Shown in pieces: positions 5,340-55,121 of a DNA stretch of 64,000 bases. Under the pieces are notes generated by a model. That model was not told the origin of the DNA. It did not search any database and was given only the letters and a program-made list of their open reading frames with translations. Each line of letters begins with the position of its first letter. Position 1 is the first letter of the stretch. The position numbers and the translations under genes were made by a program. The stretch is from a virus (lineage: Duplodnaviria > Heunggongvirae > Uroviricota > Caudoviricetes): the IMG/VR virus record IMGVR_UViG_3300029828_000006, positions 27,904 through 91,903 of that record; one strand, given 5' to 3'.

Positions 5340-5403
5340 GAATCACCGCAAATTGTTTCCAGTTTTGCGGCAGCATAATCAGTATGTGATTTCAGCGGTT
5401 GGT

Positions 5404-10232: not shown

Positions 10233-10558
10233 TATTTCTCTCCACCTTTTCCCCCATTCGCTATTACGCTTAAGAGATTCAAGACGTTACTAGCTCTGGA
10301 CTTCAAGCCCTGTAAAATTTCACTACCGTTGTTACTGGCAATCAGAACAACGCAGAAAATGATGCCTTCAGGCCATTCTTGGCTAACCGCCACCCCATAC
10401 CCCGCAAGCCCGGCTGTTACCGCAGTAAACAATTCACTCGCAAGATTGAGCAGGGACGCAGAAATGCGCCCGTCTCTAACTCCGAGAAGGAATACGCCGG
10501 TTCCACTTAGTAGGGATGTTATGACTACTACAGCCAGATTTTCATAATCTGCAAACAT
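10232..10558 (-). CDS. small multi-TM membrane protein, holin-like
   Basis: 108 aa, 3 predicted TM segments, first gene of operon; P1 lydA-like position. Confidence 0.4.
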   Translation of the reverse strand: MFADYENLAVVVITSLLSGTGVFLLGVRDGRISASLLNLASELFTAVTAGLAGYGVAVSQEWPEGIIFCVVLIASNNGSEILQGLKSRASNVLNLLSVIANGGKGGEK

Positions 10559-10634
10559 ACCCCTCCAGAAATAACATCTAATGCGCCACTAACTTAGTCA
10601 GTTTGTTATTTCCTTACAGGACATCTTCTAAAAT

Positions 10635-10660
10635 CTCCCCCCTTAACATACTAGGGGGGA
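10635..10660. promoter_or_regulatory. hairpin (C7/G7 stem) overlapping invertase ribosome-binding region
   Basis: tcccccc-ttaacatacta-gggggga ending 4 nt before invertase ATG at 10664. Confidence 0.4.
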
Positions 10661-10663
10661 CAT

Positions 10664-11224
10664 ATGCTTATTGGATACATTCGCGTATCAACTAATGACC
10701 AAAACACCGCTTTACAACGAAACGCCCTTGAAAGCGCAGGATGTGAGCTAATTTTTGAGGATAAGGCGAGCGGCAAAAAGGCTGAACGCCCAGGGTTAAA
10801 AAAGGTTCTGCGTATTATTTCCAGAGGTGACACCCTGGTCGTATGGAAGTTAGATCGTCTTGGGCGCAGCATGCGTCACTTGGTTGTGCTGGTGGAAGAG
10901 CTGCGTGACAGAGGCATTAACTTCCGAAGTCTCACTGACTCCATCGACACCAGTACACCAATGGGGCGCTTTTTCTTTCACGTAATGGGGGCGCTGGCAG
11001 AAATGGAACGTGAGCTTATCGTTGAACGTACACGCGCTGGACTTGATGCAGCTCGCGCAGAAGGTCGTATAGGTGGGCGTCGGCCTAAATACAAAGAAGA
11101 AACATGGCAGCAAATGCGGCGATTGCTGGAGAAGGGCATCCCCCGTAAGCAGGTTGCAATCATCTATGATGTGGCTGTTTCCACGCTTTATAAGAAGTTT
11201 CCGGCGTCATCATTTCAATCCTAA
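10664..11224 (+). CDS. cin: serine-recombinase DNA invertase (Cin/Gin/Pin/Hin family)
   Basis: 186 aa, MLIGYIRVSTNDQNT...VVWKLDRLGRS...GRFFFHVMGALAEMERELI; stop codon abuts left crossover site of an invertible tail-fibre segment. Confidence 0.9.
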   Translation: MLIGYIRVSTNDQNTALQRNALESAGCELIFEDKASGKKAERPGLKKVLRIISRGDTLVVWKLDRLGRSMRHLVVLVEELRDRGINFRSLTDSIDTSTPMGRFFFHVMGALAEMERELIVERTRAGLDAARAEGRIGGRRPKYKEETWQQMRRLLEKGIPRKQVAIIYDVAVSTLYKKFPASSFQS

Positions 11225-11241
11225 ACCTTGGTTTAAGAGAA
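11216..11241. promoter_or_regulatory. left crossover site (cix/gix-like, 12-2-12)
   Basis: caatcctaaacc TT ggtttaagagaa: dyad half-sites around 2-bp core; start of inverted homology with 15521-15546. Confidence 0.7.
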
Positions 11242-12873
11242 CTCGGTACCAGCGGTGAAAAGATCCCCCTGTTGAGTACGGCTAACACATGGAGTGCGCG
11301 CCAGACTTTCAACGGCGGGATCACCGGGGCGCTGACAGGGAACGCCGACACCGCGACGAAATTAAAAACAGCCATAAACATTAATGGCGTCAGATTCGAT
11401 GGTTCGGCTGACATTAATATCAATACTCTGGTATCGCGTGGTCGCGTAACGGCTCTGGGGGCGAATGCACAGGGGACATCCGGGATTCAGCTGTATGAGG
11501 CATACAACAATGGCTACCCTTCCCCCTATGGCAATGTGCTTCACCTTAAAGGTGCCACCGCTGCTGGCGAAGGTGAGTTATTCATTGGCTGGAGTGGCAC
11601 GAGTGGTGACCATGCGCCCGTACATATCCGTTCGCGGCGGGATACTGATTCTGCTAACTGGTCTGAATGGGCGCAGGTCTATACGTCAAAAGATTCCGTT
11701 CCCGGCGTTAATGCCAAAGGGAATCAGGACACCTCTGGTAATGCGGCTACAGCGACCAAGTTGCAGACAGCATGTACTATCAACGGTGTCTCGTTTGATG
11801 GTTCTAAAAATATTGAGCTAACGGCGGAAGATTTAAATCTACAGGAAACGGTAAACAAGGCTGATAACGCGGTTCAAAAGACAGGCGATACCTTGTCCGG
11901 TGGACTTACTTTTGAAAACGACTCAATCCTTGCCTGGATTCGGAATACTGACTGGGCGAAGATTGGTTTTAAAAATGATGCCGACAGCGATACTGATTCA
12001 TACATGTGGTTTGAAACAGGCGACAACGGCAATGAATATTTCAAATGGAGAAGTCGCCAGAGCACCACAACAAAAGACCTGATGAATCTTAAATGGGATG
12101 CTTTGTCTGTCCTTGTTAAAGCCCTTTTCAGCAGTGAAGTAAAAATATCGACAGTCAATGCACTAAGGATATTTAATTCATCTTTTGGTGCTATTTTTCG
12201 TCGTTCTGAAGAATGCCTGCATATCATCCCTACACGAGAGAATGAGGGGGAAAATGGTGATATAGGGCCACTACGTCCCTTTACACTTAATCTCAGAACT
12301 GGCCGTATAACTATGGGGCATGGTCTGGATGTTACAGGAGATATAACAACTAACGCCTGGGTGTATGCAAACAGGTTTGCTATTAACAGCAGTAATGGTA
12401 TGTGGATTCAGATGCGCGATAACAACGCTATCTTTGGGAAAAATATAGTTAACACTGATAGCGCCCAGGCATTGCTACGTCAGGACCATGCTGATCGCAA
12501 ATTTATGATTGGTGGTCTGGGGAATAAGCAATTTGGCATCTACATGATTAATAATTCAAGGACAGCCAATGGTACCGATGGTCAGGCGTACATGGATAAT
12601 AACGGGAACTGGCTTTGCGGCTCGCAAGTTATTCCCGGCAACTATGGCAATTTTGACTCCAGATATGTGAAAGATGTTCGACTTGGTTCACAGCAATATT
12701 ATGGAGTGAACAACTGGCAAACATGGAATTTCCAGTGCCCTTCAGGTCATGTATTGTCTGGTATTAATGTTCAGGATACAGGTTCCAACTCTGCCGATAA
12801 TATAGCGGGCGTTTATTACAGGCCCGTTCAAAAGTTTATAAATGGCACCTGGTATAATGTAGCGAGCGTTTAA
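11230..12873 (+). CDS. promoterless alternative tail-fibre C-terminal cassette (Sv')
   Basis: Reading frame open from the crossover site; N-terminal ~60 aa identical to residues ~485-545 of the expressed fibre; would fuse to constant part after inversion. Confidence 0.75.
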
Positions 12874-12874
12874 C

Positions 12875-13402
12875 ATGATGCACTTAAAGAACATAAAAGC
12901 GGGTAACGCTAAAACACTGGAACAGTATGAGTTAACAAAGAAACACGGAGTTATCTGGCTTTACTCTGAGGACGGAAAAAACTGGTATGAGGAAGTGAAA
13001 AACTTTCAGCCAGACACAATAAAGATTGTTTACGATGCAAATAATATTATTGTCGCCATCACTAAAGATGCCTCCACGCTTAACCCTGAAGGTTTTAGCG
13101 TCGTTGAGGTTCCTGATATTACAGCTAATCGTCGTGCTGATGATTCCGGTAAGTGGATGTTTAGGGACGGAGCTGTGGTTAAACGGATTTATACGGCAGA
13201 CGAGCAACAACAACAGGCCGAATCACAAAAGGCCGCGTTACTTTCCGAAGCAGAAAACGTTATTCAGCCACTGGAACGCGCTGTCAGGCTGAATATGGCG
13301 ACGGATGAGGAACGCGCACGACTGGAGTCATGGGAACGCTATAGTGTTCTGGTCAGCCGTGTGGATACGGCAAATCCTGAATGGCCACAAAAACCAGAGT
13401 AA
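12875..13402 (+). CDS. tail-fibre assembly protein, alternative copy (U')
   Basis: 175 aa, [11 protein letters not shown]...[14 protein letters not shown], paralog of 13431..13964. Confidence 0.8.
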
Positions 13403-13407
13403 AAATT

Positions 13408-13427
13408 AAGGCCCGATATCGGGCCTT
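13408..13427. terminator. bidirectional terminator hairpin at centre of invertible segment
   Basis: aaggcccgatatcgggcctt between convergent tfa genes. Confidence 0.55.
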
Positions 13428-13430
13428 CTC

Positions 13431-13964
13431 TCATTCTGGTTGTTCGGGAAACGTTACTGGCAGGCTGGAGGTGTCTGTAGATTCGACTTTCTGCGCAAAG
13501 AGCATCCACTCTGTTAATTTTTGTTTATTCTCGTCGGAAATGATGCCCAGCCGTAGCTGTGAGTCCCATAGCTGGGTTTTATCCCTGACGAGCTGTAGCA
13601 GGCTTTGCTTTTCATTTTCCGCCTGCTGCCTCTGCTCTTCCTCGGTATAAGTTCGCTTTACCACTACGCCATCTTTGAACATCCATTTACCCGAAATGTC
13701 AGCACGGCGATTTGCTGTAATATCAGGAACCTCAACGACGCTTGCGCCTTCTGGATTAATTGCTGAAACATCCTTTTCAATACAAATAATAACGCCGTTG
13801 TGGTCATAGACCATTTTCAACGTATCAGTCTGGAAATTCTTTTGTTCCTCATACCAGTTTTTTCCATCCTCTGTATAAAGCCATTTGATGTTAAATTGTT
13901 TCGTTAGCTGGTATTGCTCTTTTGTTTTAGGGTTGCCAGCAGTAATATTTTTTAAGTGCATCAT
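13431..13964 (-). CDS. tail-fibre assembly protein (U), currently expressed orientation
   Basis: 177 aa, MMHLKNITAGN... family; immediately downstream of fibre gene. Confidence 0.8.
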   Translation of the reverse strand: MMHLKNITAGNPKTKEQYQLTKQFNIKWLYTEDGKNWYEEQKNFQTDTLKMVYDHNGVIICIEKDVSAINPEGASVVEVPDITANRRADISGKWMFKDGVVVKRTYTEEEQRQQAENEKQSLLQLVRDKTQLWDSQLRLGIISDENKQKLTEWMLFAQKVESTDTSSLPVTFPEQPE

Positions 13965-13966
13965 AA

Positions 13967-16900
13967 TTAAATACTCCCCGCGTTATACCACGTTCCATTA
14001 ATGCAATACTGAATTGGCCTTGCCTGAGTTGTATCAATTAATTCATCACGGTTTCCGTTAACTGAACCAGTAACGACATAACCTGACCTGTCAGACCAGC
14101 CGGGACCATTCCATGTCTGAACAGATGACAGACCGCCAAGGCGAATACCTGTAATAAACCTTGAGTTACATTCTGCCTGCGTATATGCACCAACATCTCT
14201 CGCAGAGGGTTTGCGGGTTGTGGTGTAAAACTCTGACCAGTCAGCTTCAAAGCCATAACCATCACGCGCTGAACGATAAAAGATTCCGCCATTTCTGTAA
14301 TTCACGCGGAACTGTACAGCAGGGCAGCTCCCCGTATTCATATTGAAGTGGAGGATTAATGTCGATGCGCCACCAATATTTGCGTTATAGACCCCGCTAT
14401 TCCAGTTCCAGCCAACAGCTTTATCATTTCCGACAGTGCTTCCTGTTTGCCCTAAAGCAAATGCAGGCTGCTGGTTTTTCGTGTTGTAGTCTCGTCGCCA
14501 GCCAGGAGCATAAGCATCACCATGATTAATATAGGTGAATTGAGCGTTAGTAATTCCGCCGCCGCTGGACGTACTCGGCGTAGTAACGCGTATGGTCATT
14601 GCGCCGCGAGTGCCAATAACTTCCACCACAGCACCTGCAAGACAAATATTTCCGCAACCTGTATCTGTAATGACCTTATTATTTGCATAAGCCCATGAGC
14701 CTTTGCACATCCAGTAAGGATGGTTAAATGCTCCCTGACTCTCCAGCCACGAAATAAATTGCGCGGTTGTCCAGACCTGACTATCGCCACCAATATTCAG
14801 CCATGAGCTATATGCGCGGCAGGCACCAATATTTTTGGTGAAGGTATCTTTTCCTGGAATATCTGCGCCGTTCTGGTTTTTCTGCAATGATCCAGCGGCT
14901 AATTCTACGGTTTGCTCAAGATTTAAATCTTCCGCCGTTAACTCAATATTTTTAGAACCATCAAACGAGACACCGTTAATAGTACATGCTGTCTGCAATT
15001 TAGTCGCTGTAGCCGCATTACCAGAGGTATCCTGATCCCCTTTAGCATTGACGCCGGGAACGGAATCTTTTGACGTATAGATCTGCGCCCATTCGGACCA
15101 TGCCGCAGCAGTGCTATCTCTTTTGGATCGAATGAAAGCAGGTGCATGAGCGCCATTTGTGCCACTCCAGCCAATGAGCAACTCGCCTTCACCAGTGGAT
15201 GCTGCTCCCTTCAGGTGAAGTACATTCCCGTAAGTCGTTGGATAACCATTGTTGTATGCCTCATACATCTGCAATCCAGTAGCAGCACCTTGCGTTGTAC
15301 CGGTAAGCGCAGTAACGCGTCCTCTAGACGTAATTGTTGGTATCGAAATGTTCGTAGAACCATCGAACCTGACGCCATTAATGTTTATGGCTGTTTTTAA
15401 TTTCGTAGCGGTGTCGGCGTTCCCTGTCAGCGCCCCGGTGATCCCGCCGTTGAAAGTCTGGCGCGCACTCCATGTGTTAGCCGTACTCAACAGGGGGATC
15501 TTTTCACCGCTGGTACCGAGTTCTCTTAAACCAAGGTATTGGATAACGGCTAGTGTGCTTGTTTTAGCCAGAATATCGCGACCGACTGACGTTAAATCAG
15601 TCTGCGCTACCGTATCCTTACCGGTGAAATAAGGCAGTTTGTTTGCACCAGTCGCAAGGGCAGCAAGAGCGGTTAAAGTTGCATCAAGTGGCTGTTTCCC
15701 TGCCAGCGCATTTGTCATGGTTGTCGCAAAGTTCGGGTCATTGCCCAATGCTGCTGCAAGCTCATTCAGGGTATCAAGAGCTTCAGGTGATGAGCCGACC
15801 AATGCAGAGATAGCAGCCCGTACGTAAGCAGTCGTAGCGATCTGCGTATTGTTTGTGCCCTGTGCGGCGGTCGGCGCAGTAGGGACACCCGTTAATGCAG
15901 GGCTTGCCAAAGGCGCTTTGAGAGCCAGGGCATTGTTGATAGTTGTGCTGAAATTCGGGTCGTTATTGATCGCAGCCGCTATTTCTTTCAACGTATCCAA
16001 TGTGCTAGGCGCACCGTTGATAAGTGTCGTTATAGCTGCCTTAACAAAGGCTGTATTTGCAATCTGCGTGCTATTTGTGCCTTGTGAGGCCGTAGGCGCT
16101 GTCGGTGTACCTGTAAACGCCGGGCTTGCCAAAGGAGCTTTAAGAGCCAGTGCGTTATTGATAGTTTCGCTGAACTTTGGGTCGTTATTGATGGCTGCTG
16201 CAATTTCTTTCAGCGTGTCCATCGTTCCCGGAGCACCATTGATAAGCGCATTTATAGCAGCATAGACAAAGGCCGCATTTGCGATCTGTGTGTTGTTTGT
16301 ACCGGGTTCAGGTGTTGGCGAAGTCGGCGTACCTGACAGATGCGGACTATCGAGCGGAGCTTTTGTATCAACCAAATCATGGAGAGTTTTGACAGCCAGA
16401 GGTGTAGCCGCTTTTCTTTCTTCTGTACTGCTTATTTCATTAGAGAATTCGACACCAACAGCACGGTTAACCCGGTATTTAAGCACAATCATTTCTTTAG
16501 TCACAGCCGTTGCGCCGCTAGGCACGATAACTCGACATAATTCAATTTGATTCTGCCCAATAGTATTGTCCGTACGCGCGTAAATTCTTGCAGCACTGAC
16601 AGAAGATGCGCTATCTACCTGTGTCGTTTTTACACCATGTTCAAAATTGGCTTCCAGCACAATAATGTTTGTAGCCCCAGCCTTTACCGAGACAGTCACA
16701 TCTTCTATTTGCTGAACGGATATCTGAACATTATTTACATCTACTGAAGCAGCCCCTTTACCTTCTGAGTTTTCAGAAGTTACACGGACGCTCAACCCTG
16801 TGCCGGGAACTGGTTCAAATCCACAGTAAAAGCCAGGCAAAACAATATTTTTAAGTTTTCTGTTAAGAGCCGAACTACTATAGAGTTCGAAATATTGAAC

Positions 16901-16975
16901 ATCAGCAAGCAACGGCTGTGAAACACCAGAGGATAGTGTCATTATGTTGTTCGTTTTATCAGCCCCCATAATCAA
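13967..16975 (-). CDS. tail fibre protein (S-like): constant N-terminal part plus currently linked variable C-terminal part
   Basis: 1002 aa; three tandem ~74-aa fibre repeats; crossover falls at residue ~482. Confidence 0.85.
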   Translation of the reverse strand: MIMGADKTNNIMTLSSGVSQPLLADVQYFELYSSSALNRKLKNIVLPGFYCGFEPVPGTGLSVRVTSENSEGKGAASVDVNNVQISVQQIEDVTVSVKAGATNIIVLEANFEHGVKTTQVDSASSVSAARIYARTDNTIGQNQIELCRVIVPSGATAVTKEMIVLKYRVNRAVGVEFSNEISSTEERKAATPLAVKTLHDLVDTKAPLDSPHLSGTPTSPTPEPGTNNTQIANAAFVYAAINALINGAPGTMDTLKEIAAAINNDPKFSETINNALALKAPLASPAFTGTPTAPTASQGTNSTQIANTAFVKAAITTLINGAPSTLDTLKEIAAAINNDPNFSTTINNALALKAPLASPALTGVPTAPTAAQGTNNTQIATTAYVRAAISALVGSSPEALDTLNELAAALGNDPNFATTMTNALAGKQPLDATLTALAALATGANKLPYFTGKDTVAQTDLTSVGRDILAKTSTLAVIQYLGLRELGTSGEKIPLLSTANTWSARQTFNGGITGALTGNADTATKLKTAININGVRFDGSTNISIPTITSRGRVTALTGTTQGAATGLQMYEAYNNGYPTTYGNVLHLKGAASTGEGELLIGWSGTNGAHAPAFIRSKRDSTAAAWSEWAQIYTSKDSVPGVNAKGDQDTSGNAATATKLQTACTINGVSFDGSKNIELTAEDLNLEQTVELAAGSLQKNQNGADIPGKDTFTKNIGACRAYSSWLNIGGDSQVWTTAQFISWLESQGAFNHPYWMCKGSWAYANNKVITDTGCGNICLAGAVVEVIGTRGAMTIRVTTPSTSSGGGITNAQFTYINHGDAYAPGWRRDYNTKNQQPAFALGQTGSTVGNDKAVGWNWNSGVYNANIGGASTLILHFNMNTGSCPAVQFRVNYRNGGIFYRSARDGYGFEADWSEFYTTTRKPSARDVGAYTQAECNSRFITGIRLGGLSSVQTWNGPGWSDRSGYVVTGSVNGNRDELIDTTQARPIQYCINGTWYNAGSI
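15521..15546. promoter_or_regulatory. right crossover site (cix/gix-like)
   Basis: ttctcttaaacc AA ggtattggataa; closely matches Hin hixL TTCTTGAAAACC AA GGTTTTTGATAA (recalled from memory). Confidence 0.75.
15688..16363. repeat. ~222-bp tandem direct repeats (3 copies) inside tail-fibre gene
   Basis: Encode repeated IANAAFV..INGAP..LDTLKEIAAAINNDP..ALKAPLASPA units (residues ~205-430). Confidence 0.7.
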
Positions 16976-17418
16976 CCCTCAACTTGCTCGATTGTCATGA
17001 GAATACTGTAACGTTTACCTTTATAGAGGGTATCTTGCTGGGTGCAAAGCACACCAAAAGCCTGTTCCTCAGCATCAACAAGCACAAGCGTGTTAAAGTC
17101 GTAAGGCGTGTTATCCGGCATTCTTTCTTGAGGGAAGGCTGCATTGATAGTGATAATCCCATCCACACTGGACAATATCAGATCGGACACTGCAAACTGT
17201 TGAGCATCACTCAATTTAAAATCGAGTGGAATGTCAGCTATATTCCAGCCTCCTGCACCATTAGCAGTTACCAGACTAGATTTGCACCAATACGCCTTAG
17301 AGATAACAAAACGCGCACCTTTGCCGATCGCCGACTCAGCGCGGCGTGAATAATAGTAGGAAAGCAATTGCGCCTTATACAGGCGGTTACCATCTCTTGC
17401 CTTTAAATTTTCAGCCAT
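16972..17418 (-). CDS. tail protein (P1 R-position)
   Basis: 148 aa, overlaps fibre start by 4 bp. Confidence 0.35.
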   Translation of the reverse strand: MAENLKARDGNRLYKAQLLSYYYSRRAESAIGKGARFVISKAYWCKSSLVTANGAGGWNIADIPLDFKLSDAQQFAVSDLILSSVDGIITINAAFPQERMPDNTPYDFNTLVLVDAEEQAFGVLCTQQDTLYKGKRYSILMTIEQVEG

Positions 17419-17512
17419 ACGAACATAGCCCCTTCATAAGCAATGAACCAAAGGAGAGTATGCTCAGTTTGTGATTTCCGTTGTTCTTCCCCCAAATGCG
17501 GGGGAAGAATTA

Positions 17513-36239: not shown

Positions 36240-36457
36240 ATTGTCATCACTTTGTTATTTCGTCATTCAAACTGAGAGTTAAATTTCGGAATATTTTTGT
36301 ATTCTCAATTCATTCTCAAATAAATCTCACTGTCAGACCATCATTCATTGGGTGATTAAGATATTCTCAAAGTGAACTCAATAATCACTCTTTTTTATCT
36401 CTTTTGGTGTGGATTTTTGGGTGCTTCTCTTTTAAAATTGCATTTTGATTCTCAAAT
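36240..36457. repeat. parC-like centromere with repeated ATTCTCAA units upstream of parM
   Basis: Units at ~36310, 36323, 36370, 36447 in AT-rich region. Confidence 0.5.
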
Positions 36458-51165: not shown

Positions 51166-51452
51166 CGTTATGACTCCCTACCGCGCTTCGGCTGAAAGTT
51201 AATCGTCAAAAGAACCTTCAACGGGAGCCGTTAGCGCGATGGATTATGTGCAGTTTGTGATTTCCAGAATAGTGTCAACCACTTTTTGAGGATTTTATTA
51301 TTTGACCGAAACTTGGCCTAAATCATGTTGATGTAGTTGATTGTTTTTATAACATAAAACCTCATTTTGTTTACATGAAGGACGGGGTAGTGAAGTTAAG
51401 GGTTTTAGGGACCGCGCTCGCGGCTAAGATGGTAAAGTATGGAGTTAATGAA

Positions 51453-54323: not shown

Positions 54324-54389
54324 ATTGGCAGCCTCCTTTGACTAAGTTAAGGAGCTACCGCGTGAGGTTCCAATCTCAATGGCGGTAGC

Positions 54390-54480
54390 ACTGACTGGGT
54401 TGGAACTACCGGCGTCAAAGGGAACCGGCCTGCCTTTCGGCAGCCCAGCCAGCACTACCATTGATCTCTGAGCTAAACGC
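54390..54480 (-). ncRNA. candidate c4-type antisense RNA element in second icd/ant leader
   Basis: + strand 54414-54422 gtcaaaggg is reverse complement of RBS-region cctttgac at 54335-54342. Confidence 0.25.
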
Positions 54481-55121
54481 TAAGTATGGCTGTGCGATGG
54501 CATGACACAAAAAAAGACGCGTTCGGCGTCTGTGTCGCCTTTGACATTATCCGGGGTTCCAATCCCGGCACCCGTTTTTCTAAGGTGCCGTAGAAATATA
54601 CCCCACGATAATGCCAGGGCGCAACAGTCAGTATTTTATGCTTTGGCGGATTTCTTCCGGGCTTGCTTGCAGGCGTAGGCCATTGCTTTAGCTTTCACTT
54701 CATCCAGCTTCCCGGTGATCACTTCTTTTCCGAGAGTGACAAACCAGTCATAGCAACCGCCAGTAATGTTCTTGATTTGAAAGTTGAGGTAGCGAACAGT
54801 CATTTTGACACCCCCAGCGCGAGTAAAGAATGCAGATTATCGCGTGAGTGGTGGACGACGAGTGATGGGAAAAGACTGTAGTTGTTCATAGTGTAGTGAC
54901 TCCTTGCTTTCGGAGCCGCCATCGACTGTTCCACGGTCTGGTGGCGGCGCAATAAAGGCTGGAACACCGTGAGTCAACGGGGGCTTTTCAGCCACCTATA
55001 TTGCACCGCCATAGGTATGGCGGCGGCAATAATACGAAAAACTAAACAGTTTGTCTCAAAAAGTTGACCGGTGTGCCAATCGGTAGTGAATGTACATCGG
55101 TGAAATTCACAATTCAACTTA

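Follow-up and report, generated by a model that had tools for sequence, protein, structure and literature searches.

The tail-fibre locus of the window (the whole 64,000-nt stretch of DNA analysed here) is very probably a Cin/C-segment host-range switch carried by a D6-like, P1-related plasmid prophage of Escherichia coli. Judged from its sequence, all structural components of the Cin system of P1, namely recombinase, sites, enhancer and payload, are found and intact (Table 1), and the switch is genuine and apparently functional in this molecule. Characterisation of the Cin/C-segment switch goes back to the 1980s. The switch is already well known: it is annotated in the P1, P7 and D6 records, and the same switch has been described for P1-like and D6-like elements (PMC6906374, PMC6799933).

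Table 1. Features of the Cin/C-segment locus, in coordinates of the window
Feature	Position	Strand	Basis
C6/G6 hairpin just 5' of cin ATG	10636..10660	+	RNA fold -16.8 kcal/mol, z = -2.25
cin, 186-aa serine DNA invertase	10664..11224	+	Pfam Resolvase 6.9e-51, HTH_7 3e-18
Recombinational enhancer homologue, within cin (cin nt 19-90)	10682..10753	+	68/72 identical to annotated P1 AF234172 enhancer, 72/72 to D6
Fis-like motif I TATCAACTAATGACC	10686..10700	.	Matches degenerate Fis consensus; weak alone (~0.55 loose matches expected per 72 nt)
Fis-like motif II GCGCAGGATGTGAGC	10734..10748	.	Fits strict pattern G..YR..W..YR..C; identical in P1
cixL, crossover 11228/11229	11216..11241	-	26/26 identical to cixL of P1, P7, D6
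Invertible C segment, 4305 bp	11229..15533	.	Bounded by the two cix centres; inverted vs D6, P1, CP088384.1, flanks collinear
Inverted-repeat arm A, joined to silent tip	11229..11853	+	Inverted repeats I1, I2; identity profile along arms
Silent alternative S C-terminus, 547 aa, P1 Sv / Mu S type	11230..12873	+	79% to P1 Sv(C+), 76% to D6 S tip
Silent tail-fibre assembly gene, U type, 175 aa	12875..13402	+	Pfam Caudo_TAP 3.5e-38; 91% to P1 U
Terminator hairpin between convergent chaperone genes	13408..13427	.	Terminator scan; RNA fold -20.6 kcal/mol, z = -5.2
Expressed tail-fibre assembly gene, U' type, 177 aa	13431..13964	-	Pfam Caudo_TAP 1.6e-36; 97% to P1 U'
Currently expressed variable S C-terminus, P7 Sv / P1 Sv' / Mu S' type	13967..15533	-	97% to P7 Sv, 86% to P1 Sv'
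Inverted-repeat arm B, joined to expressed tip	14906..15533	-	Inverted repeats; identity profile along arms
cixR, crossover 15533/15534, within S	15521..15546	+	26/26 identical to cixR of P1, P7, D6
Sc, constant N-terminal part of tail fibre S	15534..16975	-	90% to D6 S N-terminus
R, first gene of the R-S-U tail-fibre operon	16972..17418	-	99.3% to D6 R
Candidate late-promoter box GGAAATCACAAACTGA, 46 nt 5' of R	17464..17479	-	8 matches in window vs 1.35 expected

Recombination sites, invertase and enhancer

The two 26-bp sites are mutually inverted and match each other at 22 of 26 positions. Each is an imperfect dyad whose 12-bp half-sites agree at 8 of 12 positions around a central AA/TT that is the same in both sites, and the sequences are those of the cixL and cixR recognised by Cin. 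An earlier note on this DNA had placed a 26-bp dyad at 11216-11241 and its inverted partner at 15521-15546, and both are there. Its comparison of the right site with the half-sites of Hin hixL and Gin gix caught a genuine similarity (21/26), but the actual match is to cixL/cixR, at 26/26; the gix sequence was confirmed in the Mu record. When the window was searched with a 24-nt cix pattern allowing at most three mismatches, cixL and cixR were the two matches in 64 kb, against 0 expected (100 shuffles). A multi-site system, such as Min of p15B or the plasmid shufflons, was rejected because only these two cix-like sites occur in the window.

The cin product has the build of a small serine invertase (~190 aa; catalytic domain at the N-terminus, helix-turn-helix at the C-terminus, nucleophilic serine at position 9/10). 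It is full length, without frameshift, carries Y5-R7-S9 with the catalytic Ser9 as well as the LDRLGR motif, and matches the Gin structure 3uj3 over residues 1-182 (1e-88). The protein is 98.4% identical to D6 Cin (three conservative differences), 97.3% identical to P1 Cin (five differences) and 100% identical to the protein of plasmid CP088384.1, and it is presumably catalytically active in this molecule. The gene had been said to end exactly at the left site. It does reach the site, whose outer half-site overlaps the final cin codons and the stop, but the stop codon (11222-11224) falls within that half-site, 4 nt before the crossover.

The note had also suggested a search for a Fis-bound enhancer in the 5' region of the invertase gene. 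This search recovered a P1 enhancer homologue, which sits as far into cin as its P1 counterpart, with two Fis-like motifs whose centres (10693 and 10741) lie 48 bp apart; both positions also match in P1. At the sequence level this is the arrangement of an invertase enhancer, two Fis sites 48 bp apart at the 5' end of the gene, with motifs scored against a degenerate Fis consensus. Inversion in this molecule would be predicted to depend on Fis. Upstream of cin, in a region common to D6 and not to P1, a hairpin pairs with the G-rich Shine-Dalgarno sequence of the gene and may limit its translation. A sigma-70 scan around cin returned fewer promoter-like sites than shuffled sequence and none convincing near the gene. 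The cin promoter was left unassigned, since the sole sigma-70-like site upstream (10521-10548) is weak, at 9/12.

Tips, chaperones and the tail-fibre operon

The ~4.3 kb between the sites had been described as carrying two alternative fibre C-termini and two assembly genes in opposed orientation, and all of these were found within the 4305 bp. The silent tip matches the Mu tail fibre S (5yvq, 5.5e-151); it lacks a 5' portion of its own and comes into frame with Sc after in-silico inversion. The tip in use matches the Mu S' structure 8ju3 (1e-214), and the earlier call that the current state expresses the 13967-15533 tip with the 13431..13964 assembly protein was right. The right site lies in S, as had been claimed, with the crossover in codon 481 (479 counted from the ATG) and not ~482. 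As an open reading frame, S (13967-16975, minus strand) comprises 1002 aa from a mechanical TTG; its start is likely the ATG at 16969, giving 1000 aa, as in gene calls. The Sc shaft contains three 74-aa repeats (aa 205-426).

Flipping the segment in silico yielded an uninterrupted 1028-aa S with U directly after it, and the equivalent flipped S gene is annotated in CP088384.1 with 1026 aa. Both states of S (1002 aa native, 1028 aa flipped) are in-frame fusions directly followed by a Caudo_TAP gene. Pfam Phage_P1_tail_fiber_R is listed for the identical R gene in related contigs. All eight matches of the 16-nt box GGAAATCACAAACTGA in the window are on the minus strand, and the box also stands upstream of lydA, the portal gene and other minus-strand operons. 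It is a putative late promoter of late-type operons, and late transcription of the fibre genes would presumably start upstream of R. The P1 LPs -22 late-promoter box AAGTTACTT was sought upstream of R and not found.

The inverted repeats flanking the tips measure ~0.63 kb and are mosaic, in agreement with the ~0.6 kb of mosaic inverted homology first reported. Identity is 96% between 11218-11415 and 15347-15544, and 82% between 11488-11853 and 14906-15271.

Herein, we propose how the switch would operate, with steps that follow what is established for the Hin/Gin/Cin/Pin invertases. Cin dimers would bind cixL and cixR, and on supercoiled DNA both sites would meet the Fis-bound enhancer in the 5' part of cin. 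Ser9 would then cut both strands at the central AA/TT of each cix, whereupon subunit rotation and religation would invert the 4305 bp between the sites. Since the promoter, R and the first ~480 S codons (Sc) lie outside the segment, each orientation would fuse Sc in frame to a different receptor-binding tip, and each would put the matching chaperone gene directly downstream of S. In the sequenced orientation the fibre would carry a P7 Sv / P1 Sv' / Mu S'-type tip, served by a U'-type chaperone. In the other, a 1028-aa fibre with a P1 Sv / Mu S-type tip would be made with a U-type chaperone. The swap of tips would presumably change host range; what points to two host specificities is the likeness of the tips to Mu S (5yvq) and Mu S' (8ju3).

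Comparison with known systems

Among the closest known systems is that of phage D6 (NC_050154, MF356679), whose flanking genes (lydB, lydA, cin, Sc, R) share 96-98% DNA identity with the window. Both have the same cix sites, no lydC between lydA and cin, and mosaic arms. However, the segment is opposite in orientation to the D6 record, the S shaft has three 74-aa repeats in the window and two in D6, and the tips are just 76-86% identical to those of D6. P1 (AF234172), the experimentally characterised prototype of the C segment, shares the ~4.3-kb segment, the ~0.6-kb inverted repeats, the opposed Sv-U / Sv'-U' pairs and a cin gene adjoining cixL. Unlike P1, the window has mosaic arms where those of P1 are near-perfect, and it is in the state called C(-) in P1; Sc and R are merely 45-59% identical. 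The region 5' of cin is non-homologous, the window lacking lydC and the P1cin/P2cin promoters, and the P1-type -22 box is missing 5' of R.

The expressed tip is 97% identical to Sv of P7 (AF503408), and the orientation is as in the P7 record; the matching chaperone gene, by contrast, is split into Ua and Ub in P7 and is one intact 177-aa gene in the window, and the P7 inverted repeats span only ~150 nt. With the Gin / G segment of Mu, the unique central ~3 kb shares 92-94% DNA identity, both tips match the solved Mu S / S' structures, Cin is ~74% identical to Gin and the site matches gix at 21/26. Sc nevertheless comprises 480 codons in the window and ~170 in Mu, with respect to the S promoter the invertase gene lies on the other side, and the phage backbone is different. 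The E. coli plasmid pF16EC0589-1 (CP088384.1) has an identical Cin and is collinear with all 64 kb of the window at 99.6-99.98%, the one exception being the inverted stretch 11218-15544. Because both of its arms are of the window's arm-A type, about 110 differences from the window are concentrated at 14960-15460.

Orientation among relatives

Next, we compared the two orientations among related plasmids and genomes. Coverage of at least 80% was reached for the native query by 13 records of the plasmid collection, and for the flipped query by 11. The best match to the 7.1-kb region at 10400-17500 was 95.8% in the native orientation and 98.5% for the flipped query. One UK farm survey contributed two sibling plasmid pairs whose members are essentially the same apart from an inversion at the cix sites; CP057047 flipped at cix is identical to CP057059 over 9304 bp. 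Only the pair CP057521 / CP057592 is informative about the exchange point: when the segment inverted, a SNP lying 49 nt inward of each cix stayed behind. The window as sequenced is absent from the phage, plasmid and E. coli genome collections, and the flipped twin of its exact allele pair (the cin 3' end joined to arm B and the P7-type tip) had no exact match among complete E. coli genomes, the best reaching 97.2%. The presence of both states among near-identical plasmids goes some way towards the check for both orientations, by reads or PCR, that the note had called for.

It is very unlikely that the switch is a frozen relic, in which the parts are intact, yet Cin is inactive or unexpressed and the prophage always makes the same fibre. 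The hairpin that may occlude the cin ribosome-binding site and the lack of a convincing sigma-70 promoter close to cin would fit such a state, and degenerate Cin switches have been reported in some P1-like plasmids (PMC6906374). However, Cin is full length, differs little from the Cin of the isolated phage D6 and from that of P1 and is identical to that of an oppositely oriented plasmid, CP088384.1; conservation extends to both cix sites and to the enhancer, and the silent tip and its chaperone are still open, which would be unexpected after long disuse.

More improbable still is the reading that orientation differences among relatives stem mainly from RecA-type recombination or gene conversion between the ~0.6-kb repeats, and not from Cin acting at cix. 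The unmoved SNP of CP057521 / CP057592 favours it, placing the exchange point 49-485 nt inside the repeat unless the SNP was converted later, as do the homogenised, near-perfect arms of CP088384.1 and P1 beside the mosaic arms of the window and D6. That difference shows that recombination acts on the arms. Against repeats as the main route, the minus-strand match to CP088384.1, D6 and P1 extends up to cix (11218, 15544), and cix is perfectly conserved while the adjacent arm diverges to ~60-80%. P7 keeps only ~150 nt of repeat, yet is annotated with the same Cin-inverted C segment, and the classic work of Iida et al. of 1982 reportedly found C inversion in P1 to depend on Cin. The residual SNP itself could be an assembly-polishing artefact of a mixed-orientation culture. 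In most near-identical pairs the arms are identical to each other, so that a cix crossover is indistinguishable from one elsewhere in the 0.6-kb repeats. Inversion by Cin at cix remains our reading of the switch. It is possible, if doubtful, that exchanges inside the 0.6-kb repeats, and not strictly at cix, account for part of the switching and for the patchwork arms in natural D6-like plasmids; the SNP of CP057521 / CP057592 and the homogenised arms of CP088384.1, otherwise 99.9% identical to the mosaic window, hint at this.

Implications

The value of the locus for discovery is small, and its practical use lies in annotation. The 'tail fiber protein' open reading frame at 11272-12873 is the silent alternative C-terminus of S, not a free-standing gene, and whichever way 11229-15533 points should be recorded as a state that can vary, and not counted as structural divergence among isolates. 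Plasmid assemblies from mixed-orientation cultures may contain polishing artefacts in the repeat arms. If exchanges inside the repeats do occur, they would reshuffle between the tips roughly the 200 residues with which the variable part begins, and create new fibre chimeras. As homology to the Mu S / S' tips suggests, particles made by this prophage may come with one or the other of two receptor specificities.

Anatomy of the Cin switch

The earlier note had described an inversion switch in which a serine invertase gene and a dyad site face an inverted partner site inside a tail-fibre gene, with alternative fibre tips and assembly genes in between. By the ORF list, the repeat search and the site comparison this description is accurate, apart from two small corrections. 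The invertase gene (cin) does overlap its site, but it does not end exactly at it: the stop codon lies within the outer half-site. The partner site is indeed inside the tail-fibre gene S, although not at codon ~482; the crossover dinucleotide (15533/15534) falls in codon 481 if codons are numbered from the start of the mechanical ORF, and in codon 479 if they are numbered from the probable ATG at 16969. The Pfam domains are Resolvase and HTH_7 in the 186-aa protein, Caudo_TAP in both small genes, and tail-fibre domains in the two large ones. The repeat search resolved the inverted arms, A beside the silent tip and B beside the expressed tip, into two blocks of homology. The constant part of S (Sc) includes a shaft of three tandem repeats of 74 aa (222 nt; S aa 205-426).

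Features of the inversion locus and other signals in the window
Feature	Position	Strand	Remarks
cin ORF	10664-11224	+	186 aa; ORF list
Enhancer homologue	10682-10753		cin nt 19-90
cixL crossover site	11216-11241		26 bp
533-aa ORF	11272-12873	+	ORF list
Silent tip	11230-12873		
Chaperone gene, silent side	12875-13402	+	~175 aa; ORF list; convergent with 13431-13964
Terminator hairpin	13408-13427		strong; between the convergent chaperone genes
Chaperone gene, expressed side	13431-13964	-	~175 aa; ORF list; convergent with 12875-13402
S ORF	13967-16975	-	1002 aa; ORF list
Expressed tip	13967-15533		fused to Sc
cixR crossover site	15521-15546		26 bp
Inverted homology, block 1	11218-11415 and 15347-15544		96%
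Inverted homology, block 2	11488-11853 and 14906-15271		82%
S shaft repeats	15700-16363		
C6/G6 hairpin	10636-10660		over the cin Shine-Dalgarno sequence; -16.8 kcal/mol, z = -2.25
Copies of the 16-nt box (five of eight)	5379-5394, 10598-10613, 17464-17479, 36247-36262, 51250-51265	-	
Rfam C4/a1-b1/isrK-type matches	1116-1201, 1269-1321, 54378-54465, 54510-54588	-	

Crossover sites and enhancer

The anatomy of the switch and its conservation can be read directly from the DNA. The two sites, TTCTCTTAAACCAAGGTTTAGGATTG (cixL, read on the minus strand) and TTCTCTTAAACCAAGGTATTGGATAA (cixR), match each other at 22/26 positions, and both are imperfect dyads with a central AA/TT. Annotated records of the reference phages P7, P1 and D6 supplied the coordinates of both cix sites, the crossover points and the enhancer; the window sites matched the extracted cixL and cixR at 26/26 positions in all three. 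A search of the 64 kb with the 24-nt cix pattern, allowing up to three mismatches, returned only these two sites, while 100 shuffles returned none. A multi-site system of the Min or shufflon type was rejected, there being only two cix-like sites in the 64 kb.

The enhancer homologue within cin is identical to that of D6 (72/72) and nearly so to the annotated P1 enhancer (68/72). Fis sites in the Hin, Gin and Cin systems follow a known consensus and a 48-bp spacing rule. Two motifs resembling this consensus lie in the homologue, with centers 48 bp apart and positions as in P1; the consensus is degenerate, and a loose motif is common (~0.55 per 72 nt).

Cin itself is 98.4%, 97.3% and 95.7% identical to the proteins of D6, P1 and P7, respectively. 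Five changes separate P1 Cin from the window protein (P1 residue first: V6I, E12D, M51I, L52I and Q144K), and they leave Y5, R7, S9 and the LDRLGR motif untouched. The nearest solved structure is Gin (3uj3, 1e-88). Among phage records, megablast matched the annotated cin, C-segment, S and U regions of P7, P1, D6 and RCS47, as well as the G segments of Mu, D108 and SfMu.

Sequenced orientation and inversion among relatives

Aligned to the records of D6 and P1, the window has its flanks on the plus strand and 11218-15544 on the minus strand; hence, it is in the C(-) state of P1 nomenclature. The expressed tip shares 97% identity with P7 Sv and 86% with P1 Sv', and among solved structures it matches the Mu S' tip (8ju3, 1e-214); the chaperone downstream is 97% identical to P1 U'. 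For the silent tip, identity to P1 Sv in the C(+) state is 79%; this tip matches Mu S (5yvq, 5.5e-151), and the chaperone that goes with it shares 91% identity with P1 U. Nine public contigs, among them one of 63.9 kb from a JGI metagenome and several assemblies at NCBI, encode exactly the 1000-aa S protein that belongs to the sequenced orientation. In those contigs the silent tip is inconsistently annotated, since the lengths called vary widely, from 326 to 548 aa.

When 11229-15533 was reverse-complemented in silico, an open S ORF of 1028 aa with an unchanged junction peptide was obtained, directly followed by the U gene. As a 7.1-kb query, the flipped version matched the E. coli plasmid CP088384.1 in one piece at 98.5%, while the best match of the native version reached only 95.8%; coverage of 80% or more was reached by 13 records for the native query and by 11 for the flipped one. 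The whole window aligned with the whole of CP088384.1 in three collinear plus-strand blocks (99.64-99.98%), with 11218-15544 on the minus strand, and the annotation of this plasmid includes a tail-fibre gene of 1026 aa, the counterpart of the flipped S predicted here. The junction that inversion of the window's own pair of alleles would create had no identical match among complete E. coli genomes.

Two sibling plasmid pairs from one farm survey differ by the same inversion. CP057047, when flipped at the cix centers, is identical to CP057059 over 9304 bp. After flipping, CP057521 and CP057592 differ solely by one SNP, which lies 49 nt inward of each cix (CP057521.1 position 3016; CP057592.1 position 7058) and stayed when the segment moved. 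That this SNP stayed put hints either at an event within the arms, such as a crossover in the repeat or gene conversion, or at an artefact of consensus polishing if the culture was of mixed orientation. The sibling comparisons show inversion, but with arms that scarcely differ, or not at all, they fix no precise crossover. Between the window and CP088384.1, its 99.9% identical relative, there are ~110 differences, nearly all in one arm (14960-15460); the plasmid has two identical arms, whereas those of the window are mosaic. Recombination or conversion is evidently concentrated in the repeat arms.

Candidate expression signals and antisense RNAs

The region upstream of cin is common to the window and D6 and absent from P1; the C6/G6 hairpin may therefore be lineage-specific, and it may act as a brake on cin translation. 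No late-promoter box of the P1 type (-22 box) was found upstream of R, the first gene of the fibre operon. A 16-nt box, GGAAATMACAAACTGA, occurs in eight copies where 1.35 would be expected, every one of them on the minus strand, and five copies are located upstream of late-type genes or operons (portal, lydA, R and others), at distances of 35-145 nt. This box is a candidate D6-type late-promoter element in place of the P1 -22 box.

Elsewhere in the window, Rfam identified two C4 antisense RNA genes, one with a1/b1 target sites and the other adjoining an isrK match, which suggests two immI-type immunity modules within one plasmid prophage. CP088384.1 has two Icd-like genes annotated at the corresponding places.

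A known switch in a D6 backbone

By every feature that sequence can test, this is a Cin-family system. The flanking lydB, lydA, Sc and R are 96-98% identical in DNA to those of D6, with much lower likeness to P1, and lydC is missing from both D6 and the window. D6 has one 74-aa shaft repeat fewer, and the repeat number is a polymorphism in shaft length. Compared with the reference phages, the window combines a P7-type tip and an intact U' chaperone with a D6 backbone, and its repeat arms are mosaic; these departures, the extra shaft repeat included, are ordinary allelic mosaicism. The same region has been described in P1-like plasmids (PMC6906374) and in D6-like plasmid prophages (PMC6799933), and the D6 record carries its annotation. 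The switch is real and the earlier note read it correctly; it is also already known.

From homology with the characterized Cin, Gin and Hin, Cin bound to both cix sites and Fis bound to the enhancer would form an invertasome on supercoiled DNA. Ser9 would then cut at the central dinucleotide, and subunit rotation would invert the segment. By this analogy we infer the activity of the switch, its dependence on Fis and the host specificities of the tips. With the R-Sc transcription unit staying fixed, inversion would change which receptor-binding tip and which chaperone are expressed from that unit.
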